A DNA stretch of 44,980 nucleotides, filler included, from Streblomastix strix (lineage: Eukaryota): the NCBI GenBank assembly GCA_008636045.1. It is 2 parts of 2 records of this genome, joined end to end, with 100 filler letters (N's around TTAATTAATTAA, not from the genome) between each part and the next. Parts side by side here need not be neighbours in the genome. Positions count along the whole stretch, not along the records: positions 1 to 22,442 come from SNRW01000321.1; 1 more part is not named here. One strand, 5' to 3'. The translations under genes and the position numbers were made by a program. How positions within the stretch are numbered: the first letter of the stretch is position 1; each line of letters starts with the position of its first letter. Below, in pieces: positions 553-37,896 of this stretch. Under the pieces are notes generated by a model. That model was not told where the DNA came from. It worked only from the letters and a program-made list of their open reading frames with translations, and made no database searches.

Positions 553-659
553 AAGGCGAAGTTGTTGTATATTATTATACATCCTCTAATTACCAATAGT
601 CCCACTTTGGCAATTGAGGAGTGTATATTTTATATCTAACAACTTCACCTTTATTGAGT
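553..659. repeat. ~100-bp imperfect hairpin, probable DIRS terminal repeat/ICR; most of it recurs at 19681-19751
   Basis: 553-600 (AAGGCGAAGTTGTTGTATATTATTATACATCCTCTAATTACCAATAGT) is the near reverse complement of 604-652, around a CCC loop. 589-659 is nearly identical to 19682-19751. Confidence 0.75.
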
Positions 660-1212
660 ACTTGAAATTGGATTACATTCCACTTGGCCATGAGTATCAG
701 ATAGTTTCATTGCTATTACGGAATGTTTTATTCATTAATTAACTAAATTTTGTATTTATATAATAAATTAAAATTAATTAATATAATATCAACAAAAAAC
801 AGCGATAATTAATTAAAAGTCAAAAATGAACTAAATACTATCAAATAGGGATTTGAATGTAAGGATATCTTCAAAACAGAACTATAATGCTGCTAATGCT
901 ATAATTATGATTACTTATATTAAGATTCTGAAAAGTGTTGAAGATTTTTTCCTATAGGTTTTCAAATTTGAAAAAAAGAATAAATATAGAATGAGACATA
1001 AATTTTAAAATTTCTAAAATAATTTGTATATTTTCAAACAGTGCTAAGAGTATAAATCCTGCTTCAATCTATAAAATATTTAGGAGGACTGATTCGTTCA
1101 TGGTTTCACGTCTAACCCTCACAGGCTCGGATTATGTCACACACATTTCATAAGGCGCGCTGACCTCGTTTATTGCGCATTTATCCGTTATATGCGGCCA
1201 TGATCGCACAAA

Positions 1213-2137
1213 ATGGATGAGACTCAAGGTTTCAACACGCAAATGAGCTAATAAACCGAATTATTAGCGAAGAAAGACATCGAATATACTAATAAGGTAA
1301 TGGTGATGAAATGGGAACTAGTAAAGTTGCTGTTTGACGCAGAAATACAAGTTATGCTCGCTGAAAGTTTATTCATTATTACTACATTTAACATCCACGA
1401 AGAGGACTACGAGGCCAAGATGAAATAATTATTTAAAAGGGTATTGGACTACGATACGTAGATGGCGAGGCATGAGGTGCCAGAAGATTTCTTTAGAATA
1501 AAAGAGAAAAGGAACCATTATATAGAGAGCATAAAGCCGTTATAGTCATAGATTTGGAAAAGTTTACGTATTTGAGTTCGGACTAGAAAATAATGACGAC
1601 AAGGGGCAGGATAAGGCTGGAATAAGGGAATTAATATAGAGAAGCGATGATTGGGTGGTTAAGACAATGTTGAACAGATAGCGCATGCAAATGCAATACT
1701 GTGTGTGATAGCAAATACGGTGGCATAATTGAGAGAAATTGCAAACGCCCAAAAGGAGCTGAGAGATGTTGTCGGTGGTATCATCCTGCCTGCAGACATC
1801 TTTTCTGATGATAGTTTTGAAAGTAATAAGAGGTAACTGGAGCTTAAAAAGGTGAACCAGATTCATTATCTATATCAGTAAATGCTTAGCGCATATCCTC
1901 AGTTTTATATCCGGTAACCATAAAAACTATCGCATTTATACCAGCGATTCCAGCGATTCCTGTCCGTAAAGATGCAGTATCCACCATTAGGAATGAATTA
2001 ATTCAGCTATAGAAGAAGAGCAGCGATTGGAGCAGGATATTAGGCAAAGGGAAGCGGAGCACGAGGCAGTGGAGCCTTTAGGTCGAATTTCACACTATTA
2101 GATAGGTAGTGAGAGAATGTAGAATTAAAGATTTTGA
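1213..2137 (+). pseudogene. DIRS gag-like ORF1 (frameshifted)
   Basis: Code-6 ORF MDETQGFNTQMSQQ... to a TGA near 1575. It continues in another frame as ...VAQLREIANAQKELRDVVGGIILPADIFSDDS... with a Q/P/G/R-rich tail, directly upstream of the RT. Confidence 0.55.
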
Positions 2138-2299
2138 ATATTACTGTCTTTCATGACTTTAACTTTTTACTTTACTTTATGGGTCCAATAAAGAAAATTT
2201 ATTTTATTGAAATGAAATATATACAAAATAATAAAATTAGCTAATAAAAGAAGAATTGAATTAGAAAATAATTAAAATTATTAACAAACAAAAAGTATT

Positions 2300-3962
2300 A
2301 TCTTAGAATAAAACTTTTGCAATAAAGAAATCTGTATGGGGTTTGAGGAGAATAATGGATTGTTGACCATTTAACGTCTTGCTGAAAGCGCTGCATTATT
2401 TAATTAATGACTTGAACAAATTACTGAAAAAATGGAAAAGAGAAGATTGTGGTCGCTTATTAGGCTTTAAGTCGGAATTTTACGATATTGCTGAGGCAGG
2501 GGAGTTGGACAAATAGTTAACGTTTGCCCATAGAGGAATACTTTACAGTCAAATAGAAATGCCGCTCTGGATTCTAATTGTGCCATAGACCTTTGTGAAA
2601 ACAATTCATATAATTATAGACAAAATGAAAAATAATTAATTAGCGCGATTAGTCAATTACATAGATGCAATTCTTTTACTAATGTAGGATTAATAGTAGC
2701 GGAAAAAAGAAATGAATTGGGTAATGGAGGAGTTTCGTAAATATGGTTAGGTAACCTACTAAAGCAAGAGCAGGCTGAACCTAGAATTGCAATTCGTGTT
2801 TTTTATATAGATGCTTAACTCGTAAACAATGAAAATTTAGTAGAATTGTGAAAAGAGGATAGAGTTGATATTGATTGTGAAGAAGTAATTAATGTTGGTA
2901 ATGGAATAAAACCCGAAAATAAACGCTTAACAAGTTTATTTTGTAAGCTTATATTATCCATTCCATAATTTAAACGTGGAGGACTGCCTCTGTAGCAGAT
3001 AATTAAATAAATTAGTGATAAAGCAAGAGAAATTAATTTTACAAACGAAATGATTGTATCAAAGAAGTGCTTAACTGAACTATATAGGCGGATGAATTAG
3101 TTGAAGAAAAATTAATCTAGAATAATAGATACGAAATTGGAACAAATAATAATTTTAACAGGAACGTTGATCACAAGATGGGGTGTTAGTGTGATCAATA
3201 AAAAAATATAAAAATTAAGAGAATTCATAGACAATTGGAAGTCAGTATGGAAAATTAGAATTTGCGAGAGATATTAGCAATCTGTAGAGCAGTATAAGTA
3301 TTTAAAGATTGCTTTTATCTAAATTAATACAGTTATTTAATGATAGACACAGATAATACAATAGGGTGTTTCTCAATTTCAAAAGCAAAGGCAAAATATC
3401 ATTTGAGGAAAATGACGGACTCAAGTATGAAAATAGGATAGGAAAATGTGTGCAAATTAACAATAAGACATATAGCCTGGAAATTTAATTAAGATGCGGA
3501 CACGTTATCAAGGATATTGATGAATGAAAATTATCCAATAATGAAAAAATATAGGGAGAAGTGCTCAACAAATAACTATTGAAAATAGAAAAGGATTTAT
3601 TTTCAGTGCAAAATAATGCTAAACATAAGAGATGTTTTACTTTTGGGAGAAGGAAATCGCAGAATGACAGGATTCCATGAGAATTCTTTGAGAAGAAGAG
3701 TTTTCGTTAAAATTTCTATTAATTCCAATGACTTACAGAGTAATTAGTAAAATGATGAAGAAAAAAGCGCAAGGAATGATGATAGTGCAATACTGATAAA
3801 GATTGATTTTATAGATATATTTGAAGGAAAATGCAACAAAGGAGAAAGTTGTGAGACAACATGAAGGTGTTAAAGACTGGACCGAAGATGAAGATGAAGA
3901 GTCTGAATGTTTCTTTGGGGAAGATATCGGCTTTAGAGGAAAATGGATGTAAGATGGTGTAA
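2300..3962 (+). pseudogene. DIRS reverse transcriptase-RNase H-methyltransferase-like polyprotein (decayed)
   Basis: RT motifs GGLRRIMDC*PFN (TGA 2364-2366), EMPLWILIVPQTFVK, degenerate YxDD as NYIDAILLL (2658-2669) and SKSRLNLELQFVFL. RNase H end IRHIAWKFNQDADTLSR (~3463-3513). MT-like DLFSVQNNAKHKRCF and VLKTGPKMKMKSLNVSLGKI. Confidence 0.8.
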
Positions 3963-4800
3963 GTTTATTTCAGTACTCATTAGTAGCATCTTGATTACTA
4001 AAAAATTCAATTAGAATAATATTAGATAATTGGTATAGGAGTAGGAGGATGCACGTCTGCTCTACATAAGCTTTTTTGGGGAATATGAACAGGAAAAATA
4101 TAAGTATAGGAGAATTGACATTAATTGGAAAGCTATATCAGTAGTTAGCAAAAGAACTGGCCTGCCCTTAACATTTATTCTGATAAAACAATTAGAAAGC
4201 AGTGATTAAAATAATAAAAGTAATAGAAAACAATAAAAATAAACGAATTTCATATGTTAAAGAAATAAAAACAAATCAAAAGTTAAAAAAATATTGAAAT
4301 TGAATTGATTTATCAGAGTAAAGGTGAATAAATAATATGTGAGATTAATTTGATCAGAGTAAATTAATTATATGGATCTTATTTGTGAGAAAAATTAATT
4401 ATATGACTTTCACAATGCACGATTTTAGTGATTTAAGGGTATTATTTAAGAGAAAAAATTATGTATAGCGTCAATGAAATATATATGTTATACAGTGTAA
4501 ATCGTACAGGCGGGCCAAGTCTTTTGCTTACTACTCCATGAAGTTAATTTGGTAATGTTAGTTAGGTATAGTTATTTCATTTTTAAGAATTTTTTAAAGG
4601 ATAGAGAATTTTTATTTATATTGCAAGAAATAGCATAAGAAAAAATCGCATACCTTCAAGGTTTTTTAGTGATATACGATAATCGAAAATTTGTTTGATT
4701 GGTGAAAATAATGATGAAAAACAGTTACAGAATCGCGAATGAACATCATTTTTGGATTCCTCGTGTGTGATAATACCTTAGCGTGAAATATTAGAGATAT
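3945..4800 (+). pseudogene. DIRS tyrosine recombinase, N-terminal part (decayed, truncated)
   Basis: Overlaps the MT end as in DIRS elements. DGVSLFQYSLVAS*LLKNSIRIILDNWYRSRRMH resembles DIRS YR N-termini. The catalytic C-terminus (HxxR...Y) is not seen. Confidence 0.5.
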
Positions 4801-4951: not shown

Positions 4952-5281
4952 ATGGTAAGATAAACTGTTTTGAATTAAATCGAAGTAAACGAACTTGAAG
5001 AAGTTGATGAATTTGATGACGAAATTTCTGTAAATGAAGTTGATGAATTTTCTGATGCTTTTAGTGAATTTGGTGGTGAAATCGAAGTAAATGAGTGTGG
5101 TGGTGAAATTTCTGTAAACTACGTCACACTTGATGAACAGATTGAAGAAAATTAAGATTGGTTCATTGATACTGACGAAGATTTTGACGATTATGTACGA
5201 ATATTTGATCGAGAAACGTATGAAGAATCTAATAAACCGAATGAGAATTATGTTATAGAAATCGTTGAAATGAATGAATGA
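4952..5281 (+). CDS. Small highly acidic protein (109 aa, code 6)
   Basis: MVRQTVLNQIEVNELEEVDEFDDEISVNEVDEFSDAFSEFGGEIEVNECGGEISVNY...EIVEMNE*. Uninterrupted, with AAAATG start context and TGA stop. Confidence 0.65.
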
Positions 5282-5298
5282 AATCTTATTTTTAGAGA

Positions 5299-5363
5299 AT
5301 GTGCAGGTGCACGGGGCGCACGAGGTCTTTTGGAAAACTATTTCGAGATCTGCCATAAGCCAT
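5299..5363. repeat. Partial third copy of the GC-rich GTGCACGGGG repeat (same orientation as 8072-8173)
   Basis: ATGTGCAGGTGCACGGGGCGCACGAGGTCTTTTGG...TGCCATAAGCCAT matches the arms at 8072-8173 and 8698-8799. Confidence 0.7.
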
Positions 5364-5460
5364 ATGTCAGATGCTGTTCAATGCATTCACACTAAATTAG
5401 TTTTGAATGAAAATAAATTTAATTTTAAGAATCTATTTTTTCTTTTTATCTGTAACCAAA

Positions 5461-8009
5461 ATGGCAACAGAAGAATCAAAAATAAAATGCGTTACACTCG
5501 AGAAACCTAAAAGATCTGTTAATCGTAAAGCTTCACAAGCAGCAGAATTAATGAACACGATGATAAATCAATAAGAATAAGTAAACGAGATTCTTGAAGC
5601 ATTAGAACCAATTGCTGAAAAACATATATAAGAAATACAAACAAAAAGTATAACTGAAAGAGTTAAAAATGCAATGACTAACACAGTAAATTATACAAAA
5701 GTAGGCCAACTTCCGAATGATAAACGATAAATTACTGGAAAATTAATTGATTTAACTCTAGTCGAAGATGGTGATTTATGCGTGATTGATTTTGATATTA
5801 ATAAGAATTTATCCAAAGAGAAGATTGATGAAATACGTTAAAATATAATCGATAATATGCTTCCCGCAATTGTTGGTTTAGTTAAAACAGCTCATGGAGG
5901 ATTACATGCATATTGCAATAAAAATGGGTACTTATTACCTGTTAATCGATGTATGAAATGTATTATACTAGACAACATTGAAATTGATATATTTGGATAG
6001 ATGTTTAAACATAAAGAATATTCAGAAGATCCAGAATAAAAAGAACTAATTTAGAATCGAGTAGTTGGTCCTAATTCATTATTCCGAGAAATAAAGAATA
6101 ATAAAAACGAAACTCTTAAATATGAAACAATTAATGATTGGGGTAACATGACACATCTAGCAAGCATAAGAGATATATTGGATAAATGGAATGTCGATAT
6201 TGAGATATCATACGCAGAATACATTGAAAAGAAACAAAAACGAGAATTTGGATAATAGATTACAGATGATGGAACCATTGATAAGAAGAATGATGAACTT
6301 GCATAAGCTTGAATTGATGGATTGAAGAATTTAACGATTCATAACTATCCTCAAGCTATTTCTATGGAAGTATCGCTTCTAAGTGTATTCAGTGGTTTAT
6401 ATGGCATCACAAATGAAAAGATTAGAGGTGAAGGAATTACAAATATACGTTAATACAACAAGCTAACTGCAAATACTGAAAAGAACTATGGATAAACTGC
6501 TTCATAAGGTGAACGCAAGCCTAATCCATGGATCCTAACAAAAATACTAAGATATCATAATAAAAATTACTATGAATAGATAATTAAACCATTACTGAAT
6601 ATGAAGTGAAAAAATAACAAAAAATATCTGATACAGTAAAATAAATTGAAAAGCATGAGATTGATCTGAAATATTCGTTCACATTAATAGATGTATCTAG
6701 TAAAGCATTAAGTGGAAAATATGAAAATAAAATAGAATTAGTTGCAGAAGATTTGTTTAAAATACTGAAAGTTGTACCTTGTTAGAATGGGTGGTGCTAT
6801 GTCATTAAAGAATATGATGGTTTAGCTAATACTAATACAATTCGCTATAAAAATAAGACAGCTATATTCGATTAATTACATTCAATAAGACTTTGGCAAG
6901 ATGGTAAAAAGAATATAACAGCAATCGATGCGTTAGAATAATATCATTCACTATTCGAGAAAGTAGATATAAGATTTATTAGTTAAAACCTTAAGATTTT
7001 CAGTGTATTCTAGGGATATAAGTACTTATAATTAGTAGAAGTTGATTAGATAAAATTAGAACAATTCTTAGGATTAGTGAAAGATACTATTGCAGCGAAT
7101 GATGAATTAATTTATGAATATTTATTAAATTGGTTTTCATTTATTGTGTAGAATGCAGGTAAGAAAACTGAAACAGCTATTATACTATAAGGCTTATAAG
7201 GAATAGGTAAGAATATATTTACTAATGTATTATGCGAATCACTTGCGGGTTACTCTTCAAAGAACATTACAAATATCGATGATTTTGTAGGTAAATTTAA
7301 TACTGCTATCGAAAATATGATGTTAGCGATTGCAAACAAATTGAAGAATATTGGAGAATCGAGAATATCTAATATGGATGCAATGAAGTCGATAATTACT
7401 GAATATTCGTTTGTTGTTAATGAGAAATGTATACCTAAGCATGACGTTGAGAATGTCGTGAATATGATACTTGTCACCAATAATATCTTTCCAATAAAAA
7501 TAGAGAATAATGATAGACGTTATGTTGTGTGCAAATGTAATTCGGCTCATCGAGGAGATCTAGCTTACTTGACTAACCTTTGCAATAGTTTTGGTGAATA
7601 TTTTTATAATAACTTATTTACATTTTTTATGACTAGGGATATTTCATAATTTAATCCATGAAACATTCCAACGACATAAGCTAAGAAAGATATAATAAGA
7701 GCATCAAGGTTAAAAGTTGATGATATTATAATTAATCATTTTATGTTATTCAAAGTAGGTATAATTATATCATAGGTAAAATTATGGGAAACATAAGAAA
7801 TGATATTAAAGAGTTATTAGTTAGCGATAAATAATATATGTAGTTAAGTGTGGAGAACGATAAATGGATAAAGAAAGATATTCTATAAAATGAAAGAAGA
7901 AATGATTAAGATATATGAGAATATGCTAGATGAAGATGTTGATGAGAAAGAAATCGAAGTAGAAGCAGTTGAACAGGAGAAGTAGTAAGATGGCAATGAA
8001 TATGTATGA
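5461..8009 (+). pseudogene. Prim-Pol (AEP-family primase-polymerase) fused to SF3/D5-like helicase
   Basis: N-terminal CVIDFD and VKTAHGGLHAY Prim-Pol motifs. Walker A ILQGLQGIGKN (GLQGIGKN at 7191-7214, both Gln encoded by TAA), motif C ILVTNN, Arg finger DRRY. In-frame TGA at 6310 and 7659 and a frameshift near 6600. Confidence 0.88.
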
Positions 8010-8071
8010 ATAAAAGTGCTCGTGCAATGCTCGTGCAGATATCAGAGGCAAATTTATTTTTTTTCTAGAAT

Positions 8072-8799
8072 CATAGAGAAATGATGTGAAATATCCATGT
8101 GCATGGGGTGCACGGGGTTACACGGGGTATTTGACTCCATCTTATTTTCCTGCCATATTAACCATTGTGCCATATCGTTGGAAATATGAATTAATTTGAA
8201 GGGCTGGAGTAAAAAACGAATGAAATGTGAAGAAATGTGATGACTTATGCAGCCATATTGCAAATTGATTGATGATTTATTTTTTTATTAGAAATGAAAT
8301 GATAGGAGATAAGCTTATATATAATAATCCATTCGATATCGATAAAGACAAATATAATCACGATAATTATGATAAGGATTTCATAGATAAATTTATTGAA
8401 CATAATAGAGGAAGAATATCATCAGGTAAGACTTTTAAAGCAATCTGTAATATGTGTCTTAATAATATGGTTACATTAACATTCCATAAGCTAGTCTTCC
8501 GATTATTAAATAAAATAATTTTAGATCATAAGAATGGAAAGAAACATCAAATGTATTATTCAACTAATTTAGGTATCTGATTAATTATTTTTTGAGCAAT
8601 CCTAAGCAAATGCCATATGGCAACACTCATTAATGATCTATATTATTTTGTTCACTAGTTCTTCAAATTAATACAGAATATCAAAAGCGGAATTCTAATG
8701 GCATAATGGCGGAAATGGCGGGAATCCGAGATGGAATCAAAAGTCCTCGTGCACCCCATGCACCCCGTGCACATGGATATTTCACATCAATTCTCCATG
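8072..8799. repeat. ~100-bp inverted repeat pair (8072-8173 / 8698-8799) flanking a small ORF
   Basis: Left arm CATAGAGAAATGATGTGAAATATCCATGTGCATGGGGTGCACGGGG... and reverse complement of right arm CATGGAGAATTGATGTGAAATATCCATGTGCACGGGGTGCATGGGG... align over the whole arm. Confidence 0.9.
8299..8580 (+). CDS. Small C2H2 (U1/matrin-like) zinc-finger protein, 93 aa
   Basis: MIGDKLIYNNPF...AICNMC...LDHKNGKKHQ...*. CxxC plus HxxGKKH pattern, intact, ends in TGA. Confidence 0.6.
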   Translation: MIGDKLIYNNPFDIDKDKYNHDNYDKDFIDKFIEHNRGRISSGKTFKAICNMCLNNMVTLTFHKLVFRLLNKIILDHKNGKKHQMYYSTNLGI

Positions 8800-8938
8800 C
8801 CAGAACACATTCTCATTAAAATAGTCCCCGTGCAATGCACATGCACTCGAAAGATTGGACATAATATCTCTTTTGTACACATCTCTAGAGAAAATCATTG
8901 ATGTGATGCATCGACATACAAAAATAAATCCATTTTCA

Positions 8939-9403
8939 TCAATTCTAAACTTCTGGAATCTTGAGTGGATCTGCGAGTGGATTTACTCTTTAGAGCGCCA
9001 GCTCTGTTGGTACAATCTCATATCTATCAATTATATCGTTAATTAGAAGTAAATCCTATACATCCGTAATGATGATTCGTTATAGGCGTTTGAGTACGAA
9101 TAACTGAATTTCGTTCACATGAGTACGGAATTATTAATGCTGAGAACGGTATCTGGCTTATGCGCGTGCTCCCTATTCTGCTGTTACTTGTTCTGCTACT
9201 TCTTATGTTTAATATTTTTTATGTCATCCTCTATTTTCTAATTTTATAGGTTAAATTGTTGTATCTAATATAGGTTCAATTACAATTTATTTGATAGTTG
9301 CTTATGCAGGTTCAATAACCGATTCTTTAATTGGTTCAGCAACAAGTTCTTATATCGATAGTTTTGATTTATTAATTAATTGCTTGATTTGTTTGGTTTG
9401 CAT
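8939..9403 (-). pseudogene. Viral hypothetical protein with degenerate AT-hook-like motif
   Basis: 155-codon frame MQTKQIKQLINKS...NRG*HKKYQTQEVAEQVTAEQGARAQARYR...EVQN*. One internal TGA (9224-9226) falls within an RGRPKKY-like motif. Confidence 0.55.
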
Positions 9404-9423: not shown

Positions 9424-10605
9424 TCAATTATTGATTAAGAATTAACTTTTATAATTAACAGGTAATGAATTGATATGTTCAGAAATATACTTACAATAAT
9501 ATATAGGCAATTCAACTTAATCAATAGGTCCATTTGTTCGTAACAGTTTACATATTACATTGCCATTCTTATAAGCAATAAATGTTGCAAACTCATTGAA
9601 ATTTCTTCTAATTTTGAATGTTTTTATTTTTGTTCTTCAATAATCTAGATGAATCATAATTATATTTCCAGCTCTGAATTCGAATAGATGTTACTATGAT
9701 TATTGTTGTTTAGCCTAGTCCAATTATGCTAACTTATAGCGTATGAATGATCCTTCTAAATCTCGAGATTATTGTATTTATGTTGGTGAATATTTATTAT
9801 CGAATGCTTCATGCTTGTTGTTATTGTATATCATTACTATTTATTACATTAAATTATGATTAGCCATTGAGTTACTATCCTCTCCAAACCCATCTCTAAT
9901 CGTTCTAATTATTCTATCCACTACTCTATTATGATGTGTAAATGGAGATGAATTGAAATATAGCATTATATTATTATCCTTACAGAATTTTTTAATTGTA
10001 GTTCCAGTCAAACCTTTCTCTCCATCTGATCGAATATTATTAACATATTATGTATTAATTAATTACGTTAACGCATTCTTTAATTGGTTAGCTGATTTAT
10101 CAATTATTGGTATTACGACTAGATATTTTGTGTTAATATTGATAGCAAATAAGTATATCTATTCTCTATGCTTATATGTATCGTATGCTATTGCTAAATC
10201 AATTTCATATGAACCAGTTTTAGGTGAGAAATATGGACGTTGAAGCTTAGTTAGTGGTTTCAATTAATAATCTTATATTTATTCTTATCGCAATTACTTA
10301 TTCTTTGTTCTATATGGATTGATTATTATTCTCTATTCTTATAACGTGTTTTATATTTCTATTCTAGGCTATGGCTTAGGACGTTTGGGCAATAATTAGC
10401 GCTTAGGAACATTGTATTTCAATAGCTCTTATTTATATAGATCAAACCATTATAGTATGTACTTACTTCCATATTTAATTAAGCCTGCATTATCTATAAA
10501 TTCTTATGTTTCATCCTTGCTTCTGGTTATGTGCATATTTCTAATGAATACTGGTAAAGTCATCGGTTAAAGATTACGCGCGAGATGTTCTATATTATGT
10601 ATCAT
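9424..10605 (-). pseudogene. Retroviral-type (rve) integrase of Polinton-like element 1
   Basis: RPYFSPKTGSYEIDL (D 10198-10200), YLFAININTKYL, NNIRSDGEKG (D 10024-10026), HNRVVDRIIRTIRD (9916-9918), IYNNNKH. Single in-frame TGA at 9637-9639. An alternative start lies at 10536. Confidence 0.88.
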
Positions 10606-10723
10606 ACATTAATCAATCTCATCAATATCATCAGTATTATACATTTTCTATGCAAAAATAAGATGCAGTTCACTGCATTCACACTACTGCACTTCAATGA
10701 GCATTTCATGCCCGCTGACAAAG

Positions 10724-11275
10724 TCAGTGACAAATCTTGCAATCACATGCATATTTCAAAGCTGCTTTACATACAGCAGTGAGAATCTCATGCCAATTTA
10801 TATCGATTTTCTCTAATTATATCGCAATAAATTCTGTTGTGTTTGAAGGTTATAGCTCGAATAACAGATACATTTCATTAACGCAAAAATAAATTATTGT
10901 CACTAACGTTTTAACTAAATCTTCTAGCTAATTTATATAATTATCTCGTATTTCTCTATATTCTTTACAAGCATTGTGAAGCTTATTTTCGACACTGCAC
11001 TCTGCATTCATCCAATGTATTTCATCTTGTGTTCTTTTTTTAAGCAACATTCGCATTTCATAAGCAGTATCACTATGTTCTTCATCGAAACATTCTAGAT
11101 CCTTTTTATTATTTATTTTCGATAATCCTTTAACTTTTTTCTAGCATTTGTTATCTAATTTATAAAAACTTCTGTCACAGCTATCGAGAATTTTCGGTAG
11201 CTGCACGGATAATTCATATAATTACTTGTTTTATTCGAAGTTTTGATCTAACGCATTTATGAGTTTGTTTGCCAT
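10724..11275 (-). CDS. Viral hypothetical protein (183 aa, helical, Cys-rich C-terminus)
   Basis: Code-6 ORF MANKLINALDQNFEQNKQLYELS...KYACDCKICH*, packed between pPolB and the integrase. The true 3' end may be frameshifted. Confidence 0.55.
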
Positions 11276-11303: not shown

Positions 11304-14300
11304 TCATTATTTAATTTGATAAATTTTTGAATTCAATCCAAAGATATAGGGTGCGCAACTCTGATTCTCTAGTACAATCATTTTTGAATGAGCTCCAGAT
11401 ATATCATTCTTTGACATAGATAAGTTGCTCATTATTTTATTCTTTTATGCTAATATTGTATTAGTAACTCTCATTATTTTTCCTTCTTTAATATTATCTA
11501 TAAATGTCTATTCATTTATTTATGTATTTTATCGTAATATAACACCTTTCGATACTAATGACACATCACCACATTCATCGTTAATGATATAATTTTAAGT
11601 GATAATACTATGCAATTTAATCATTATTTTTCGAAATGAACCCCTAATATCTTCCTCTGATTATCTTTACTGAAGAAGAATCCTTTAGTTTTATCATAAA
11701 ATTCTTAATCTTTAATTATGACATCAAATCGTTACTCTGAACCTCTATTCTTATCACCACTTATCGCTAGTGTCAAGCTATCGGTATCTAATTATATTAT
11801 GTGCATCTTCGTTTGGTCGAATGCTTTATACAAGAAATTATATATGAAATTGATGTAGAAATATTTAGCAGAATCTAAGGTGAAGTATCCTACTTATAAA
11901 CAGTTATTGCATCTACAATACTCAGAATCTACTTAAACTGCATGCAGATTATCTGTTATTTCTATATCGTGATAATGTGATCCAAATAGATGGGACTAGA
12001 ATGTATAATCATCATCAAATAGTCTTATATTACTATATTTTTCACTGTTTAATATGTCTCCTCAAAAAGCTGAATTCAAAATTAGCTTACAAAAGGTTGC
12101 AAGACCATCATTCTTCTACGATTTAGCTTCAGCATGCTATTGCATAAAATCCTTAACGAATCCATTAAATTTATCATGTTTACTGAATGTAGTTACTGAT
12201 TTAATTTCATCAATAATAAAGTAGAATTGATCTATTAAGATCCATAAATAATAGCAATTGAAACTCATTACTTCATGATGTGTATCTACTAAATTTGTTA
12301 ATTTTCTTTCAATTTTATCTCTTGGCAAGTTACTATCAACTAAATGTTTATACATATATTTTCCGATAGTCTCTTCATTAACTGGTATATCAATGTTTCT
12401 GATTATTGGACCAAAACCAATGCAAAAATTAATATAATTTTCATCAATATGTCCACGAACTTGTGCTATGAATAACGGTACGGATTTGCGTATTTATTCA
12501 TCTTCCGTAAACCTATTTGAGCTGTAAATTATCTCATTACATCTATCTTAATCTACTATATATTCAAGCACTTATCCACACATGAACATCTTATGGCAAG
12601 TTTATCGGATAAGCGGATACGATTCTGAACTCATTATACTCGCATACTAGCTATCAAAATCTAACTAAATAATATGTGTCATTATATGTTCTGAATCAAT
12701 AGAATATACACATTTTTTCTCAACATCATATTCTAGATGATTAATCCTTGTTTCTCCAGCTACATTATATCGATGCAGCACATTGCTCAATCCTCCAGTA
12801 ATATTTTTTCTAATTATCTGATATACTTTTTGGTTCACTAATGTCACTGGTAGTTACTTTAATAAGCTATATTTTCTTAATTATATCATTAGTTTCATCT
12901 ATTTTTCATCACGATTACCTTTATACTTATTGCAGTACAAACAACATGGAAGTACATTATCTTTTGAATGACTTAATTCATTATCAATTCTATCTAATGT
13001 AGGGCGATTTTTCCAAGTGAATTTTGATTGACAGATATAGTATCTCTAATTTTCGAATATTTCTTTAAAATATTCATAATCATCAATGGTTACGCTATTG
13101 CTTGTATATCTTTTTTTCTTCTAATCTTATTCAATATAACTCTCTACTTTAGCTCTCTAATATGGTATAGTAATATTAATGGGTTTATCTGTATCTTCTA
13201 CATTATAGTTTCCATTCATTTCAAAATCATCATATGCACTGGAATATATAATCGCATTGGCGCATTATGACATATTAAACATAAATAGCATATCGATCTT
13301 ATATTTGAACATCATCTTGATTAAATTATCGATAGGTTCAATCATAATAGGTGTATCTTATACGTTATAATATCTTAAATAATCCCATCTAGTTGCGTAC
13401 TTTGCTGCTTCGACAAAATATTCTTAATACTTCGCTTCATTTAATGATTTATTCTTCAATTTATTATCGAATGCTTCTCTAGGAAATGGCTCAGGTTTAT
13501 CTAGTTCTGTAGCATAGTTAGTAACGTTGATAAATTCATGTGGAAATCGACCTTTTTTCATAATTGACATTCCTATATCTCGAACAAACACTTTAAGTTT
13601 CATCTTGGTACAATAGATCAATGCGTCTACGAATCTTAGTTAAATATGTGTATCCTTATGTCGAACTGTTATCTATTTAGCAACGGTTCCGCTACCTATA
13701 TGTTTAACGATTTTCCAATTCTTTGATTTCAAATTCTTAAATACTAATGATACATCGAACTTAGCAGAATTGAATCCTATCACTGGCACTTCAAAATGTT
13801 ATGGAATGCTCTCATCTTCATACTTATTATCTTTCTTTATTTGCTTCGCTTCTTCGAATACCTAGTCTAACCATTAATCCAAATAATTAGCTTATCGAAT
13901 ATCGTAACAGAATGAATGTATACCTGATTTATTCTTGACAGTAGATGCGATACAATAAGGAATAAGTTATGATACAACCATTGATTCTTCTCCATAATTC
14001 AACTAGATGAATTTATCAAATGTTTCTATGTCATATGTTATATAATATTCAGTAGGCTTAAACTCATTTTCTCTACCATATACGAATAGGTATCTATAAG
14101 TAACGTTACTAAGTATGTGCGGAACGAATGGACGAGCAAATTTCTCCAATATAACTTTCGTCACTATTTTACAATTGTTTTTCTTACATTTTTTCATATG
14201 TCTTTTCATATCTCTATTTATATTAGGATTTGATGTCTTGAACGCCTATAATTTACATATATCACAATAACGATATCCAGTTAGTGCCTAAACATCAGAG

Positions 14301-15661
14301 ACATATAATAAATGTGCATTTACCCCATTATTCATGAGAAGCACATTAAAGTCTCTCGTTGATGTTGGACGTTAATAATGATGGATAGCGTAATAATTTT
14401 ATTATTTTTCATTATCTCCATATGTAAATACATGCACATTAACCTATTCTTTATCGATGAATTCATCTACATCAGTTGCGAAATTGAAGCCTTAATATGA
14501 ATCATCGAATTCTTTTCCATAAATTCTTTTAAATATTCTCTTTCCTTCAGCGATTCTAGAACCATCTTTCCATCTTTTTTCCTTTGAGTTAGGCATAGTA
14601 ATGAATGAATATGCAGTAAAGAAACATAGATTCTATTTGCATTCTACATAGTAAATTTCTCTTCATTTGATGTGTTTTTATAATAATAGGATAGCAGCAT
14701 TCACCAATGAAAATTTATATACTCATATCATTACTGAGAATATTGCTACAATTTTTTAATGAGTATCCTCTTATGTCCTCTCTTACATATTTGTAATAAC
14801 GTCACGCATATAATGCTTATATTCAACGATATTCTCTTATGATTTTATGATTAATGGAACTCTTCTTTCAGGGTTAGCATCTACTGGAAGTACATATTTA
14901 TAACTAATCTTCTATTCATTTCCATCATATTCAGCTGTTTCAATTATTTTTCCAAAATCAGCTCTAATTTTGAATGCAGAACGCTATTATTGTCGATATA
15001 TTTGATCAAGAAATGTATCTAGTTAATCTAAATTTGCTAGATTCCTGTAATATGGTATTGTAGGTTTCTCTCTTGGATCTATGTTATTATTTACTTAGAA
15101 TGATAGAGTTTTAGTATTATTATCAAATCTTTCTAGAGCCTTATTCTTTACTATATTAAATTTAGCATCATCAGCTGCATCACATAGAATTATAATGTTA
15201 TTATCTGCAACTTAATGGAAAGGTTTATTCATATATTTTTAATGCAGTTCGTCCATCTCTTCTTCATGAGTTTTGAACATTGAATCTAGGTTTAAATTAG
15301 GAGTATTATGAAATTCTTCTATAGCTTAACGATTATGTATCTCATAAATATGTTCCATCTAGTGCTCATGACGTTATTCCTGCTATGGAAATTCTTTCTG
15401 AATTAGCTATCTCATTTTTGTTTTCATTTATTCTCTTTGTTATTATATTTGTGATTCCTATTCTGCTAATTATTTTTCAACATGTTCTATTATCGCTAAT
15501 TCAACTGCCTGCTCATCGTTTCTTTTTCCAAAATAATTAATTTACGTTAATATTTAAGATAATTTTGTACGTTAATCCTTTTCATTTATTGGTAAAATTG
15601 TATTTGGATCAAACAATCTAATTAGCTCTTATACTTTATCTAGACGAATTTTGATTGTCAT
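11304..15661 (-). pseudogene. Protein-primed family B DNA polymerase (pPolB 1) with TP-like, vOTU-like, zinc-finger and HNH/EndoVII-like domains
   Basis: ExoI ITYDIET, ExoII GFNSAKFD, RKNITGGL, motif A LDFDSQYAS, motif B KLILNSAF*G, motif C QLDTDS (DTDS 11777-11788). TGAs at 14723, 14663, 12062 and 11621 and a frameshift near 11595. Confidence 0.93.
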
Positions 15662-17070: not shown

Positions 17071-17844
17071 ATGTCCTTAAACGCATATGTCGATCAATTA
17101 CTTAGTAAGTAGAAAACTAATAAACATGAAGTATAATACTCTATTCATAAAGAACTAAATTTCTCATATAATTCTATCAATCTACTCATAGGATAACGAG
17201 GAAGCGGTAAGTTATATTATGTATTCAAAGAGTTAATCAAATTGAGCTAATTGCCTATTAAATGATACACACTATTCATATATGTTACTGATAGCAATAA
17301 TGATATAACTTATAAGAAAATGAAAGATTTAATAACTATTCCAACAAAAATAGTTCCATACGCTGAAGCAAATGAGGTATTAGATGAAGTGATCGAATGT
17401 AAATAGGCTTATGATGAGGTTGTTGAAAAGAAATTAGAAAAATAAATGAAAAATGAATCAAAATAGGATATATTATCTAATATTGGAGCAAAGGACTTTT
17501 CTATCAAGTTTCCACACACAATAGTGCAGTTCGATGATGCTATGAGTATATTCAAAAGTAAGAATCATCCGTTATATAAGAAACTATTCAAAAATAGATA
17601 GCCTAGAATCACTTACTTCCTATGCTTATAAGATATAATTGGTTTGGATGCTAGTATTAAATCTAATGTTGATATAGTATACTTTTTCGGTGGTTTCAAT
17701 AGACAAAAATTCAATTTATTCTTCTATTAATCAAGCATTCCATTATATAAAGAAACGTTATGGAGAGAATATGTGCAATTAGGCAAACGAGAAGCATTAT
17801 TGGTACAGTATAATAAAGATGGAACAATTGTGAGAGTTATCTGA
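17071..17844 (+). pseudogene. A32/FtsK-like genome packaging ATPase
   Basis: Walker A LLIGQRGSGKL, Walker B TIVQFDDAM, and NRQPRITYFLCLQD (Arg and Gln motifs of A32-type ATPases). One in-frame TGA at 17263-17265. Confidence 0.85.
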
Positions 17845-19109: not shown

Positions 19110-19843
19110 ATTTTACAATAATCATATCACTTAGCTCAAACACTAAATCTATTTATATTCAAATACAATATCTAAAGGAATTATTTATTATTAAATAAAT
19201 TGAATAAATTGCTTTTTATTTTTATTTTAAATGATAGTAATATTCATAATAATTGATTGAAAGTATTAAACTCACCTAATGGATAGAATTAATTAAATTA
19301 ATAATCAATCTTGGATAATTCATTGTTAAAAAATAAAACAGTTAAGGATTGAATTAAATTAATGATTAAGTGAGTAATAATAAAATTATATCTTCCATTC
19401 TTGCATACGCACTATTACCAAATGGTGATAATATTAATGATATTAATAGTTTATAGTCTCTGCTTGAGACTGTTATTATCTGAGTTTAAATATAAATCAC
19501 TTCATAATTATGTTTATTTATTGAAATTATTTACTATATGAATAAAAATTAATTATAAAAGTTTATTTCTATAACAATTGTGAACCATTTTAGTTTTTCT
19601 TTGCTTATAGTTTGATAAAAATGAAAAGTTGCTATTAATTAAATTAATAAATACATCATAATTACATCGGTATACAAAATATTACCAATAGTCCCACTTT
19701 GGCGATTGAGGAGTGTATATATTATATCCAACAACTTCACCTTTATTGAGTGATTACCATCAACTATTTGAAGTGATTCTTCTGGCCATTCCCCAACCAA
19801 TGTTTACAATGGGGTGTCCATTTTAAAAACTGCAAAAGAAAGG

Positions 19844-21771
19844 ATGACGCGCTGGACCAATTTTACCAACAGACGTCCATCGAGCAGGGATTCATACTAG
19901 ACACCGAATTACGCGAACTTAATACCGCAAAACCTACTACAGGTCGCCGCGCAGCCGTAACCGACGTTTGTGAACGCGTTCAGCCAGAACTTGGAGATAG
20001 ATCCACTGGACCCTGACTAAACAATAGCAACACCAGAAGAGGTACCGCCGAACTCAATAACAGCAACACATGTGCTCTTGGCTGGACTCTCTGGGCAGGA
20101 TACGTCACAAATCGATTTTTCTCGGAAGAACTGTCAGAAGAGCAAGTGGTAGAAACTAGACAATGCGCAAGAACAGCCACAGACTTGGTGACGCGCTGGA
20201 AACCGCCGAAGCATAATAACCCACCAGCGCAACCGATGCTCGCTTTTGACCAAGTTCTCGCAGATCTGGAAACGAAATTGTTGCCACAGTACAGACTGCT
20301 ACAGGGAACACTGACATAGATCGTAAAACGGGACTGGATAGCAACTCTGAAATTTAATTTGTGCACGTTCATAAGCATACACGACACGATTAACAAGGTA
20401 AGCATGAGGTGAGCGCTGATGTACATGACAGAACAAGGGAACTTACTGAAAACACAACCATCATCAGTAATACGTCCATGGTACAACAATTAGATACCGA
20501 GGTCGTTGCGAGCATTACCCCAGACTGAGGGAGCACATCCGGCTTCTGTAGATACATTACTAACGAGAATTGTAAGCATTACAGGAGAATTTGACTAGGG
20601 ACTGAAAAAGCTAACAGCACAACAAATAATAGTCTTGATCACGAGCAAGTCGGAGATAATGCCACCAGAATAGGCTCAGGATCTAGCTAGAAAACCGACA
20701 CCAGAAACCCAACAGATTGCCTTTTCACCACCACTGAGTCAATTACAACAGTAGAGCCTGAATCTATACGCACCACTCAATCCCTTTTACAACCAACCTC
20801 CTCAACAGAAGATATAGGGATAATAGCCATCACAATACCTCTTTCAATACTCTGGACAACCAATACAATACCCGATTTAACCGGTTCAGTTCCCAGTTAT
20901 CCCACCACTAAATCCATTTTTACCAACGGTGAACCCGCTGTAAATACAAATAAGCGAACCTCGACCATCAAACAATGAAACTGTAAAAAAAAATTAACAA
21001 GGTTCGATTTAGCCAAGTCAATAGATGGAATAAGTTGCAACATAAACAGTAGAGAGACCACGACAGAGTACAACGTCAATCAGAAGTGTACACAATATGT
21101 TGATTCCACCAATTCCAGCTTATCCGCAACAATAAACTCCTCGAATACCACTGCTGCCATACACAACAGAGATTAATCAACAGTAAAGACAGAGTTAAAG
21201 ATCAATATCTCTAACACATAAAAGAACAGATGAATCTGAAGATGATGACTTTCTAGATGAAATAATACCTGGAATAACAATGCCACATTTACCTCTGCAT
21301 ATGAGTGACATTGAAACAGCACAAAGAACATGGTAAAATAGAGAATATGATTTAGTAAGAGACCCTAGTGCGATCAAATACAAGAACTCGAAATAATATA
21401 GAAAGCTGACAACACAGAAGCCTTTCACATTTAGAGATTGGAAAGAGTTATGGTCAGATTCAGGCTTCTCATTGGAGTAAATCAACTTACCAAACTATCT
21501 GTCAAATGAGTACAAGTCTCAAAGTCCTCACCGCAAGTCCAAGAGAAATGAATCGATCATGATATATGAAAGGGAGAAGGAATATGCGATAAACAGTGGG
21601 AAAAGAATGAAAAGGTAGAGATTAGAAGAGCAACTCCTTGAGGAAGAAGCGAAAAGTAAACAGAATAGTGGTAGCAGCAGCAGCAGTAGTAGTAGCAGTA
21701 GTAGCAGTAGCAATAATAGCAAAAAAATACAAGAAGATTGGACAGGAAAAGGAAACACGGTAATCCCGTGA
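19844..21771 (+). pseudogene. DIRS gag-like ORF1 (~640 codons)
   Basis: MTRWTNFTNRRPSS..., frameshift near 20120, then ...LVTRWKPPKHNNPPAQPMLAFDQVLADLETK.... TGA at 20410, a Q/P-rich middle and poly-Ser near 21667-21720. Confidence 0.6.
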
Positions 21772-21775
21772 ACCG

Positions 21776-21868
21776 ATGGAGGTGAGAACTGGTTGGAGGA
21801 TGATTAACGCCATAGACAAATGGAGAAAGGGAGATAGATCGAATTTGATAGAAAATAATAGGCTATGA
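21776..21868 (+). pseudogene. N-terminal stub of DIRS reverse transcriptase ORF
   Basis: MEVRTGWRMINAIDKWRKGDRSNLIE resembles the GGRLxxFxxxW start of DIRS RTs. Similarity stops after about 30 codons. Confidence 0.5.
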
Positions 21869-22442
21869 TTCAATAATAATCCAAACCACAACAATCGCAA
21901 ATGTAAAAGGATCTAGAAGTAAATAAAAACGAAATATAAAGGCATTTAGAGCTAAAAACCACATTTCATTCACACAATATGACTAGGATACTTTAGCAAA
22001 CCCAAAAATAGATTTAAAGTACATAAGTCCATAACACAATACACCTCATAAACCTTCTTCACCACACCCTCAACAACATTCACCATCACCTTCATTGGAA
22101 GAAACATTAGCTATACTAAGAACAATTTCTCCCGTAGATCCACGAGGATATAAGGAAAGGGAATCAGAACCAAAATAACCTAAATTACGACAATATGCAA
22201 CACTAATGGATGTAATTGAAAGGTTACATGAAATAATGAAGCCAATAATCGAAGAAGAAAAGAAAAAACCCAAAGCCATGTTGCTTGGATAATACAAACA
22301 TTTCCTGAACAAATATGGTCCTCTTTTCTTCTATCCACCTAAGAACTATCGTCCATCACTGTCGTTTAGTAATCCTGGGATGTATTATCCTCTTGGTAAA
22401 TTCGCCCAAGCTTCGAGGTTGTCGGTTAGTCAAAGACAATAA

Positions 22443-30215: not shown

Positions 30216-30418
30216 TTGTTTTTGGGGTGTCTTTGGAAGAAAATTAAAATGAATAAATAATAAAAAAAAATAAACACATTAATAAATTTAAATTTATAAA
30301 AAATTAATTATTTAAATTTTTTATTTTTTATTTTTTATTTTTAATCTCACAATTAAATCACACTTTAATTCATTTTAATTTTAAACAAAGCACCGTTTGA
30401 ACTCGCAAAACAACAACT

Positions 30419-33400
30419 ATGATATCTAGACTTACAAAAGAATAATTAGGTTCATTGGATAGACTTATTGGTTTTGTTGGCATGCATGACTTATCAAATG
30501 AAACTGTATTACATGCACGATTTGAGATAGAAAATGCTCTTAAGTATTATTAAGTTGCAAGACCTGATACATTTTCTAGTGATTTGAAGCAAAGAATTGT
30601 CGCGGTAGTTCAACAGCGATAATAAGAAGAATTGCAAAAGACATCATAAGAACAAGCGACATCGTCGTCAGCGACGCATGCAACGACAACGCCGGAAGAT
30701 TAAAATGAAGTGCAAGATGATTTGCAAACCATGACATCAAACATTACAATAGAATAATTAGAAACATTGAGTCGACTTATTGGTTTTGTTGACGTGAATG
30801 ACTAATTTGTAACTGAATCATCTTTACGTTCTAAACTTCAAAGGGCTTTTTAGTATTACAATGTACCAGGATCTTACATATATTCAAATGAATTGAGGCA
30901 AAGAATCGTCGCAGCAGTTCAACAATGATAATAAGAAATTTTAAAATTGTAAGATTAAGCTGTTTAACGTCGTAGATAAGCTTTGTTACCTGCTCATCTT
31001 GATGAATAAGCTTAGTTACCAGCTCATCTTGTTGAATAAGTCTTACCAGCGTAAGAAAAGGAAAAAGAAAATGTTAAAAAACCACCTAAATAAAAGAAAG
31101 ATCCAATCAAAATAAGGTATTTATTAGATGGTTCTAATCTTTCTCCTTAATTTATTATGTAATAACTGAAAAGACTAGGATATGACGATGATGACGCCGA
31201 TTTTATTTATAATGATCTACCTGACTTAGTTACATTTGAATTAGACAAATACGACTATGATTATTCTTAACCGTCAACTGAAGCTAGAATAAGAGAATTT
31301 TTAAATTAATGGTTTACAGAAAAACCATAAGAACCAGTGGATATTTCAATCTTGTAGCCTCTTTCAAGTGAAGCTCTTGAAAATATACGTTAAAGAAAAA
31401 AGAAACCAATACAAGCTCCTGATTAGGAAATAGATGATTAAGAAATTTTGTCGCAGAAGATTGTTTCGCAGACTTTAGATGATTAAGATGAATAAGGTGA
31501 AAAATCGATCAAATTTGAAACTTTAAAAGAGGATGCTCTTAAATAAAATCATCGTGAATAGTTTCAAAAATATCTTGATGAGAAATATAAAAAGATAAGG
31601 GAATAACATAATAATATCGAAGAACTGTAACTACAAGCATTTAGACTCTTAGATGAGGAAATGAGAGAATAAATTGAAGTGAATGAAGGCAGTGATTTAG
31701 AATATGTGGAACCGATAACTCACTAAGGTGAGCTGGCAACAGAGTTGCTACTAAATGTGGATGCATTATTATTATATAAACCTATTGATTCAGATAAATT
31801 TATAATAGCATTACTTCAAGCTCATGCTGAATATTAAGATCCAACTAGAATTAAATAAAGAAGAATTAAAGATGAACCGACGATATTCTATTATAATAAT
31901 AAAATTACTTCATTAGAAGATATATAAAATCATTTAAATTTTGTATTCGATTAAGAAAAAATAAATCATTTTAAGATTGCTATCGATTTTGGTTATATAG
32001 TTGAAGAAGCTATTACTAATAATGACGGAAGTAATAAAACAGCAGAATATACTATCAATTATCCAAGATAGAATTTAAATACTATATCAGCAAAAAATAT
32101 TAAGAAAATAATTACTTCACAAGCTGATATGGATGAATTTAAAGAATATGTTCCAACAATTATAATAAATGATTAAGAGAGGACACAAGAATCAACTCAT
32201 CATAAGTTTATTGCAATATTTTCTATGGTTGTAGTTGTTTATCGATATCCTCTAACAGGTAAAGCAATTCCGGAATTATAAAAATATATTAAGCGTCGTG
32301 AAGTTCATTTTATTGATTCGTAATATCCTAATAATTGTGTGTTTGAAGCATTATCATTCTTATCATTGCCAGACAAAACGTAAGAAAAGAGATATAAAGA
32401 TCACGATAGAGTTGCTGAAGGAGTTAAATTAATAATTTAATATTATAGTCTTTAAGGAAACTCTGCGAAATGCAAAAATATTTAGAAATTTATCAAGGAA
32501 TATTAAGGTTTTGATTTTGTAACTGATAGCAAGAAATTTGCTAAATTATTTAATATAAACATTTGCATTTATGCATGCAAAGAGATTCCAATATAGTCAG
32601 ATCAAGGTGACACAATAACGGCATATGACTAATTCTACTTAGATTAGATTATCGAACCAGATAAAGATGATGCTGACGATGATGAAAAAGAATATTTAAA
32701 TGAAGAAAACAAATTATAATTATAAGATTTTAATTTACTGTTGCTTTAACTTAAAAATAATTCTCATGTTTTATTTGTATCTGATCCTGAAGCATTAACA
32801 GGTTATAGTAATTGTCCATTTTGTAAACAACACAGTGTTCCAGTTAAAAATAAGAACCGTAATGCATAAAGAGATTTTGAAAGACATGTTGCAAAATGTT
32901 AATAAAATAATGGTAAATAAGTAATATTATTAAAATCTCTTTCACTAATTGCTCCTCATATATTTGGAAATAAGACTTATTAATATCTTATGGCATATGA
33001 AAGACTAGATGAATTTAAACCAACAAGATATTTTATAACATATGATTTTGAAACTGTTCCAAGAATAATTAATTTAGGATATGGAAGTAAATCAGTTATA
33101 AATGGCATTGAGGTTCATAACTCTTAATAACATACTGTGCTCGAACCGTTATCAGTTGCTTCAACTATTAAATCAAAAGCAGGAATTAAGAAAATATATT
33201 TCGATTTACGTTAAGAAAATTTTATTGAAAAATGGCTTGAATAAATGTTCGAAGAAGCTAAATAATTGAAAGAAGATAACCAATACGATGACCCTGAAAT
33301 ACCATATGATATTTCAATTCCTGTTCTTGGATATAACTCAGCGCATTTCGATATGGTATTTGTAATCAGATATTTAACTAATCCATTATGGCACATTACA

Positions 33401-37057: not shown

Positions 37058-37469
37058 AGTAGTATAGTCCCGGGAATCTTGCGCTCAAAATAGTTAAATT
37101 AAAGGGCTAATTTATCCATTAAGGCCTCAAAATCGTGCTAAAATAAAGGAAAAGAACTGATTTTTGAGTAATTTAACCAATGTTTTATTTATTTCGTGGG
37201 AATATGTTATTTCAATAATATTTTTTTACATTAATTCCTACAGTTTTTGATTAAAATTGACGTAAAATTAATGAAACACGTAATTTTATGGGGAGAAATG
37301 TATCATTATCACTATCCCAAGCCGAAAAACGAAATAATGTGGGTACAAATGTATAATTATTCAAGAATCAGTTCTTTTCCTTTGTTTTACCACGTTTTGA
37401 GGCCTTGATGGATAAGTTAGCCCATTAATTTAACTATTTTGAGCGCAAGATTCCCGGGACTATACTACT
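37058..37469. mobile_element. 412-bp non-autonomous mini-Polinton-like element with ~115-bp TIRs
   Basis: 37058-37173 and 37355-37469 are near-perfect inverted repeats starting AGTAGTATAGTCCCGGGAATCTTGCGCTC and ending GACTATACTACT. No target-site duplication seen. Confidence 0.75.
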
Positions 37470-37523
37470 TTTTCCGACTATAATAATTACCTGAAGTTAA
37501 CTCTTCCCCAAACTCCTAACTAA

Positions 37524-37646
37524 TTTTGAAAAAATAAACAGAGGTGCAATCTGCTTTTATTTGACTGAAAGTTAGAGCTATAATTAATCTTCAACCTTAA
37601 CTTAAAAAAATTTTGAAAAATAAAACAGAGGTGCAAATTTCCTTTT
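37524..37646. repeat. Two direct copies of a TTTTGAAAAA-TAAACAGAGGTGCAA-T-CTTTT motif
   Basis: Copies at 37524-37560 and 37611-37646. The same motif occurs at 42741-42779 (direct) and 42178-42196 (inverted). Confidence 0.75.
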
Positions 37647-37896
37647 TTCTGATCCCGATTTAATTAGATCACTCTTTTCAGACCGTACCCTGTTAATTTA
37701 ACTTTATCTTATCTAGATAAAATAAAAATTATTTTTTTATTACAATAATTGGTCTTATCAAAAAATTAATTATTAAATTTACTCCATATCATATCCCCTC
37801 AATTAAAATGTAGTAAAACATATTAATAATTGAAGTAATAATTAAAGCGGGTACTTGATAAAAATAATTTTCCACACAAAGGATCAAGATATAATT

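Follow-up and report, generated by a model that had tools for sequence, protein, structure and literature searches.

The inverted-repeat unit at 8012-8846 of a 44,980-nucleotide stretch of Streblomastix strix DNA (the window; two parts of assembly GCA_008636045.1, joined end to end) is probably, at roughly 60%, an iteron-type origin or loading site of the adjacent primase-helicase, a reading that draws on analogy with SaPI origins. The repeat blocks begin 10 bp past the helicase stop codon, the arms are kept in related copies, and the C-terminal wing of the helicase comes in three types. Wing and repeats appear to change together, and the repeats are therefore likely to be the loading site of the helicase. 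An internal origin tied to the primase-helicase was among the options offered by an earlier, sequence-only reading of this DNA; that option gains support because of the position of the repeats, their facing layout, the initiator-type winged-helix fold, the wing/repeat pairing and a phage motif, and we retain it as a candidate.

The window is AT-rich (28.6% GC), is contained in termite-gut sequencing runs, and has genes that are readable solely with TAA and TAG as glutamine. Endogenous Maverick-Polinton-like viruses using this code have been reported from S. strix (PMC10120064). On the plus strand lies a broken primase-helicase gene and on the minus strand a convergent block that contains a PolB-like gene and a weakly matching rve integrase; the repeat unit is located at the junction of the two gene blocks (Table 1). 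Motifs seen by eye, which we take to be PolB-like, occur in 12062-14596 and in a paralogue at 31157-35863, frames for which searches returned no Pfam or PDB sequence match. The frame at 17320-17844, a candidate packaging ATPase, matches a P-loop gene of a related contig (L104, below) at a pairwise E of 2e-9. Self-BLAST of the window found no terminal inverted repeats around the decayed copy, a Pfam search without a capsid profile recognised no capsid gene, Rfam gave no match within 5200-9200, and a sigma-70 scan, a model not apt for a eukaryote, stayed at chance level. The pairing of pPolB with a primase-helicase is not a common one (PMC3671162).

Other repeats are present elsewhere in the window. 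A second internal inverted repeat (37058-37469; arms of about 116 bp, 89-96% complementary, 181-bp spacer) directly follows the integrase-like gene of another PolB-like element. Another arm-ORF-arm unit (42161-42251 and 42702-42795) encloses a 134-codon ORF where plus and minus blocks meet; its arms carry AAAATTAGCCC repeats and have motifs in common with 37522-37652, and no primase-helicase was seen nearby. A 71-bp direct repeat (589-659 and 19681-19751, 96%) adjoins decayed frames at about 600-4400 and 19800-22400 that look retroelement-like by eye, and a small ORF located upstream of the second PolB-like gene contains a tandem duplication of about 210 bp (30415-30937).

Table 1. Features of the repeat unit and its neighbourhood, in window coordinates
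Feature	Position	Strand	Remarks
Third, partial arm, orientation as left arm	5272..5436	+	9-bp units 5299-5325, GCCAT block
Decayed primase-helicase gene	5461..8009	+	N terminus AEP-like by motif; DUF5906 SF3 ATPase; winged helix predicted at the C terminus
Wing hairpin codons (16 residues), type A	7842..7889	+	Segment differing between paralogue types
Outer repeat pair, two TGCACGAG	8012..8038	-	Starts 10 bp past helicase stop
Left arm	8062..8289	+	Three 9-bp units at 8098-8127
93-aa ORF, Streblomastix-type viral family	8299..8580	+	Open for 93 codons
Right arm, inverted	8580..8805	-	Three 9-bp units 8745-8772
Outer repeat block past right arm	8820..8846	-	Same tail behind right arm in P0106
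rve-type integrase, in convergent pPolB-like block	9637..10752	-	Pfam rve E 0.005, below cut-off

Self-BLAST of the window recovers the inverted arms at 8072-8173 and 8698-8799 (79.6% over 103 bp, E 8.8e-17), as the sequence-only reading had described them, with their outermost 47 bp 91% complementary; when gaps are allowed, the arms span roughly 8062-8289 and 8580-8805, with identity at 136 of the 209 aligned columns. Folded as a single strand, 8000-8860 has a z of -8.1, and 0 of 20 shuffles were equally stable. The arms are indeed GC-rich (43% and 50% over about 100 bp, 61% in the repeat blocks, versus 28.6% for the window), and each is laid out as a conserved outer 35 bp, three 9-bp units, a GCCAT block and an AT-rich inner part. 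The claim of three units per arm holds, two being exact (G)TGCA(C/T)GGGG and one degenerate. Right-arm units face left-arm units across 617 bp, a spacer with no AT excess (28.2% GC, the same as the helicase gene at 28.2% and close to the 28.6% of the window). The related motifs reported outside the arms correspond to further units at 8019-8037 and 8827, and the 8012-8038 pair has a direct-repeat partner at 8820-8845 (81% over 26 bp). Upstream of the primase-helicase the third copy is real and longer than the 5299-5363 first given to it (5272-5436); it is without the conserved outer 30 bp, and with the right arm it forms an inverted pair around the gene (27 bp, 89%). All nine TGCAYGRG matches in the 45 kb lie at 5308 or within 8019-8834, that is, flanking the primase-helicase gene (1.87 expected; 0 of 100 shuffles reach nine). 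Eight are downstream of the helicase, two on the plus and six on the minus strand, alongside one degenerate plus-strand unit; the first is at 8019 and the stop codon at 8007-8009. Among metagenome contigs an 18-base arm pattern hit 23 loci, none homologous outside the pattern. No viral locus was hit by a longer arm pattern or by one of closely facing units, a tail pattern hit three loci (the phage contig L123 discussed below and two unrelated ones), and the arm blocks gave chance matches only against plasmids and phages.

Read with TAA and TAG as glutamine, the helicase gene is interrupted by two in-frame TGA codons (6310-6312, 7659-7661) and by a frameshift near 6576-6609; its fragment 6576-7661 shows 70-83% identity to proteins that carry the label Streblomastix strix. 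The window copy is a decayed relic with a broken helicase and is probably inactive. For the fold we used an intact paralogue, P0002, for which an AlphaFold model built from 47 sequences (pLDDT 86) ends in three short helices followed by a hairpin at 747-764. Its best structural match is the C-terminal region of NrS-1 (Z 26.9, model 375-765); it also matches ASFV PrimPol and SaPI5 PriRep (Z 19.9, model 363-760 to chain 316-750), the latter in an alignment of the full-length model that reaches PriRep5 residue 750 of a domain spanning 676-790. The C terminus is accordingly predicted from the model to be a winged helix, with the fold of NrS-1 and SaPI5 PriRep. No Pfam primase family matched any of the 47 helicase sequences, and the AEP assignment therefore rests on N-terminal motifs and on Foldseek matches to primase-polymerases.

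A coding explanation may be considered for the 9-bp period as well, frames opening easily under the TAA/TAG glutamine code (145 ATG ORFs of at least 93 codons in the window). The ORF between the arms had been described as an intact 93-aa C2H2 protein; the frame is open, and the C2H2 label has to be withdrawn. It is a real family gene, with two S. strix proteins (P0073 and P0075) 40% identical over its length. Both are without C50, C53 and H77, and because the two cysteines are missing from both homologues (H77 would be the first histidine) we do not regard the ORF as a C2H2 finger. The only zinc-finger profile to match was zf-met, at E 1.6 over 8 residues (9.6 bits, with the Pfam cut-off at 21.2), and the codon of the first histidine (position 8527) is different in most of the related-contig depth. 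With ligands unconserved and profile support negligible, the proposal that a zinc finger encoded here binds the iterons finds no support. A low-confidence model built from 3 sequences (pLDDT 52) is all-helical. Substitutions in related contigs, from a selected list, are synonymous in 10 of 30 cases versus 18% expected, a weak sign of coding constraint. The ORF found no match in a word-indexed protein search, two in a representative protein search (one real, one a repeat protein) and no usable one in the Atlas.

Related contigs over 7700-9300 number 161 in run X1 and 77 in run X3, from another study, and are mostly 80-95% alike. An X1 contig covering 7700-8458 with 73 differences and an X3 contig covering 7923-8285 link helicase, left arm and small ORF in other copies. 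The two outcomes that had been named as fatal to the cassette, arms dispersed independently of the virus and an inverted repeat peculiar to one copy, were not what we found: in the other copies seen the arms are linked to the helicase, related copies keep them, and they are too diverged for a fold-back. That the structure is an assembly or amplification artefact is largely refuted and very improbable. The contigs are short and none listed spans the whole cassette, as such an artefact would allow, but the arms are only 65-80% alike, with indels, an independent assembly covers 8405-9044 in one contig with 0 differences, and the helicase models P0106 and P0101 carry the same arms in other copies; the inverted repeat, whose arms stay behind the helicase in related copies too, is not a fold-back. 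Depth falls about 100-fold within the arm, from about 2200 over the GCCAT block to about 30 over the 9-bp slot, and two other 9-bp units (types B and C) appear as DNA in loose contig ends, behind 8730 and before 8137; together these make the 9-bp slot the variable part of the arm.

In the protein, variation between the types is concentrated in the wing. The wing is visible in 21 of 44 Streblomastix-labelled helicase models, of which 18, together with the window, form the typed set; left out were P0006 and P0014, whose wings are of other kinds, and P0111, in which the wing is cut. Defined from the first wing residues, there are three discrete 16-residue types (A, 7 copies; B, 8; C, 4), with wing identities of 77-89% within and 31-38% between types. 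Identity between types B and C is 0.91 before the wing, 0.38 within it and 0.82 after it, and the wing is the least conserved 16-residue segment in all three whole-protein B/C pairs tested. P0001 and P0098, for example, share 483 of 495 residues before the wing and 6 of 16 inside it.

Repeats can be read in five copies, namely the window and four of the 21 models that read through into downstream DNA; the read-through units are back-translations of gene models with uncertain introns, and types B and C are represented by one model each. The P0106 read-through (type A) aligns with the window's right arm and tail at 59% over 58 residues (E 1.7e-13). In P0101 (type B) CPE is read three times, followed by left-arm-like sequence (its match to the left-arm translation is reached by 0 of 200 shuffles) and, about 62 residues on, by TQD three times. 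CPE and TQD are reverse-complement compatible, as 84 of 8000 tripeptides would be, and represent facing arrays of a different unit, which is present as DNA behind 8730. By eye, P0055 (type C) has SMH three times in the same slot, and this unit is the reverse complement of the one before 8137 in run X2. P0014, whose wing is of a fourth kind, carries HRV-type repeats and, further on, a PCA block, giving a TGCA-core unit on either side; its arm matches are weaker, with the right-arm match reached by 2 of 200 shuffles and the left-arm match by 70 of 200. On these sequences each wing type appears to pair with its own 9-bp unit in the five readable copies. Wing and repeats are 150-900 bp apart, which counts against the origin reading, since linkage alone can pair them at that distance; linkage does not explain why these two short segments differ while the sequence between them stays. 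The wings of types A and C and of P0014 end in Tyr-Lys, like strand 4 of PriRep5, and their units have a TGCA core; the type B wing ends in Tyr-Gln and its unit is non-TGCA. That the wing-end residue tracks the TGCA core (P0002 748-763 versus PriRep5) is speculative, and L123 does not fit.

Arrays beside helicase genes recur at other loci, in support of the origin reading. L123, a tailed phage with a terminase, has at 579-3215 a D5_N+DUF5906 gene followed 6 bp on by 12 GTGCAYGG units in facing blocks, a compact array of about 310 bp enclosing no gene, which we consider a candidate for a clean phage origin. Its wing is unlike type A despite the same iteron, and it is the only one of 25 viral loci with the tandem motif to have such a gene (Pfam was run on 30 of the 357 ORFs, and P-loop ORFs were looked for in all 25 loci); both points count against the origin reading. 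A helicase gene accompanied the type-B motif in none of three loci, the L123 protein search matched only itself, and the window helicase had no close match among the viral loci.

Closer helicase relatives come from eight loci in two gut assemblies (G001 and G002). L138 has a facing array downstream of the helicase gene (0 of 200 shuffles), L104 and L136 have one upstream (in L104, 5 matches versus 0.96 expected), and in L140 the gene is flanked on either side by inverted copies of a single repeat. L105 and L135 have same-direction 9-bp arrays upstream, within a small ORF, and L139 a tandem pair at the contig edge. The downstream flanks of L136, L139, L141 and L142 contained no array, the last two having been inspected on that side only; L137 has no flank. 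A strict facing-array detector picked out a single locus among 80 distant viral helicase loci and did not register L104, and the block of the window itself fails an exact-6-mer test (23 of 200 shuffles). Like the flanks with no array and the type-B result, these outcomes count against the origin reading. L140 also has a dense TTCTAGTATCAT-type repeat array at its contig end (2-330), about 900 bp upstream of the helicase gene, and L105 combines the primase-helicase with two further genes, one PolB-like and one DUF4108. G001 and G002 are labelled bacterial and contain several Polinton-like contigs with this primase-helicase (L104, L105, L135-L143), which are likely protist-derived contamination.

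If the unit is an origin, the wing of the C-terminal winged helix would read the 9-bp units, as it does in SaPI5 PriRep, each wing type recognising its own unit. By analogy with SaPI5, hexamers of the primase-helicase would load on both facing blocks, the loaded helicase would melt nearby A/T tracts such as 8050-8063, and the N-terminal primase domain would prime synthesis; the gene enclosed by the arms, the small ORF, would be a passenger. Several features sit badly with this model. The spacer is twice the size of a SaPI origin, holds a conserved gene and has no AT excess, and the inverted similarity runs about 200 bp past the iterons, further than an origin needs. In some contigs, three each from X1 and X2, the sequence behind the small ORF runs on past 8592 into the outer end of a directly oriented arm, with 24 of 30 letters matching 8062-8091 by eye. 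Moreover, pPolB implies terminal protein priming, which needs no internal origin.

The arms could instead be repeated modules of transcription control. Baculovirus homologous regions are a parallel for such a promoter or enhancer module, which a host or viral factor would bind here, the inverted pair being a by-product of module copying between genes. Arms in plus orientation do precede two start codons (5272-5436 before 5461, the left arm before 8299), the highest-depth related contig (depth 682) joins the inner end of an arm to the start of the small ORF (8282/8583), the GCCAT block, unlike the variable 9-bp slot, is conserved, and the similar arm-ORF-arm unit at 42161-42795 has no primase-helicase in view. 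We nevertheless consider this reading unlikely, because the right arm points into 3' ends and not at a start, and neither the swapping of the wing alone between types nor the same array behind a phage gene would be explained. Arms as the ends of a mobile replicase cassette, comprising the third arm, primase-helicase, small ORF and right arm, moved into a pPolB-type element, would fit the bracketing of the gene by the third and right arms as an inverted pair (27 bp, 89%) and the repeat copies on both sides of the L140 helicase gene. There is outside precedent in the non-terminal repeats that bracket extra replicases in other polisuviruses (bioRxiv 2026.10.13.758929) and in the repeat-flanked mobile helicases of entomopoxviruses (PMC11296320). 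The third arm without its conserved outer 30 bp, the lack of a target-site duplication or an empty site among the sequences seen, and an interior with no nuclease or recombinase make such a cassette improbable as the explanation; arms serving as recombination or copying boundaries in this way are compatible with the origin reading.

Smaller-scale mobility, with the arm-ORF-arm unit as an invertible switch or MITE-like insert whose own protein binds the repeats, would account for an arm in both orientations behind the ORF and for two joints, one in X1 from 8592 to 8816 that skips the right arm and one in X3 from the helicase end to 8575. Each joint rests on a single short contig, however, the ORF has no conserved zinc ligands, and in diverged copies helicase and unit are still linked (X1 7700-8458, 73 differences; X3 7923-8285). 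The MITE-like unit suggested from the sequence does have inverted repeats, but by eye no direct repeat abuts the outer ends at 8062 and 8805 as a target-site duplication, and no recombinase or clean recombination sites were found for the cassette, so that we give this account little credence.

Published proposals for the replication start of Polinton-like viruses with primase-helicases point to terminal repeats. Should the origin reading hold, one could tentatively envisage, with rather less confidence, a second, internal-origin mode of replication beside protein priming in the Polinton-like viruses of this protist, diversified by swapping a small cassette of wing and cognate iterons and giving plasmid-like origin specificity groups among co-resident endogenous viruses. 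Iteron origins of the bacterial-satellite type would then be at work in endogenous viruses of eukaryotes, and the coexistence of many near-identical families in one genome would be explained by wing swaps. An internal repeat array and a 16-residue protein segment that appear to vary together in natural copies would amount to a natural specificity set of three wings and three repeats. The literature listings searched describe neither iterons nor a wing/repeat pairing for these viruses; supplements may hold repeat annotations.

Among the closest known systems are the S. strix Maverick-Polinton-like viruses of the Metamonada group, which share the TAA/TAG glutamine code and a high copy number (PMC10120064, whose consulted text mentions no origin); the window helicase is 70-83% identical to S. 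strix proteins. The end modules of Polinton-like viruses resemble the unit in having a primase-helicase adjoining inverted repeats that are proposed as its origin (PMC11296320), and repeat-bracketed extra replicases resemble it in having repeats other than terminal ones around a second replicase (bioRxiv 2026.10.13.758929). That preprint leaves the statement that internal inverted-repeat cassettes are no part of the Polinton description only partly true. In both systems, as far as the consulted text of these sources goes, the repeats are terminal or read as marks of mobility, with no iteron- or wing-level pairing described; the window has no tyrosine recombinase. The NrS-1 primase-helicase (PDB 6k9c) is the closest structural match (Z 26.9), and according to PMC9371898 its origin recognition has not been addressed. 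The L123 phage gene (D5/DUF5906) has the same GTGCAYGGGG units behind it, unlike the window in a compact array of about 310 bp with no gene inside.

SaPI origins have 6-12 iterons directly downstream of rep, at least two per side and in opposite directions, read by the C-terminal winged helix of the rep protein (PMC9371898). In PriRep5, wing strands 748-750 and 777-780 contact bases of the TGCAACC iteron, and mutation abolishes binding (bioRxiv 2026.10.17.759575). The unit described here differs from SaPI5 in belonging to a eukaryotic endogenous virus, in having 9-bp tandem units within inverted arms of about 220 bp, and in having an extra arm upstream and an adjoining pPolB-like block. Its 617-bp spacer holds a 93-codon gene and shows no AT excess, whereas the SaPI centre is non-coding and AT-rich, with about 300 bp in all; because that short non-coding AT-rich centre is missing, we do not class the unit as a SaPI-type origin. 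In common with SaPI5 PriRep it has the fusion of primase and SF3 helicase, the winged helix at the C terminus (predicted here), a TGCA core in the repeat and, as predicted here, the wing as the element of specificity; in both, short repeats follow directly on the stop codon and form opposed blocks, one side of which includes some inverted units.
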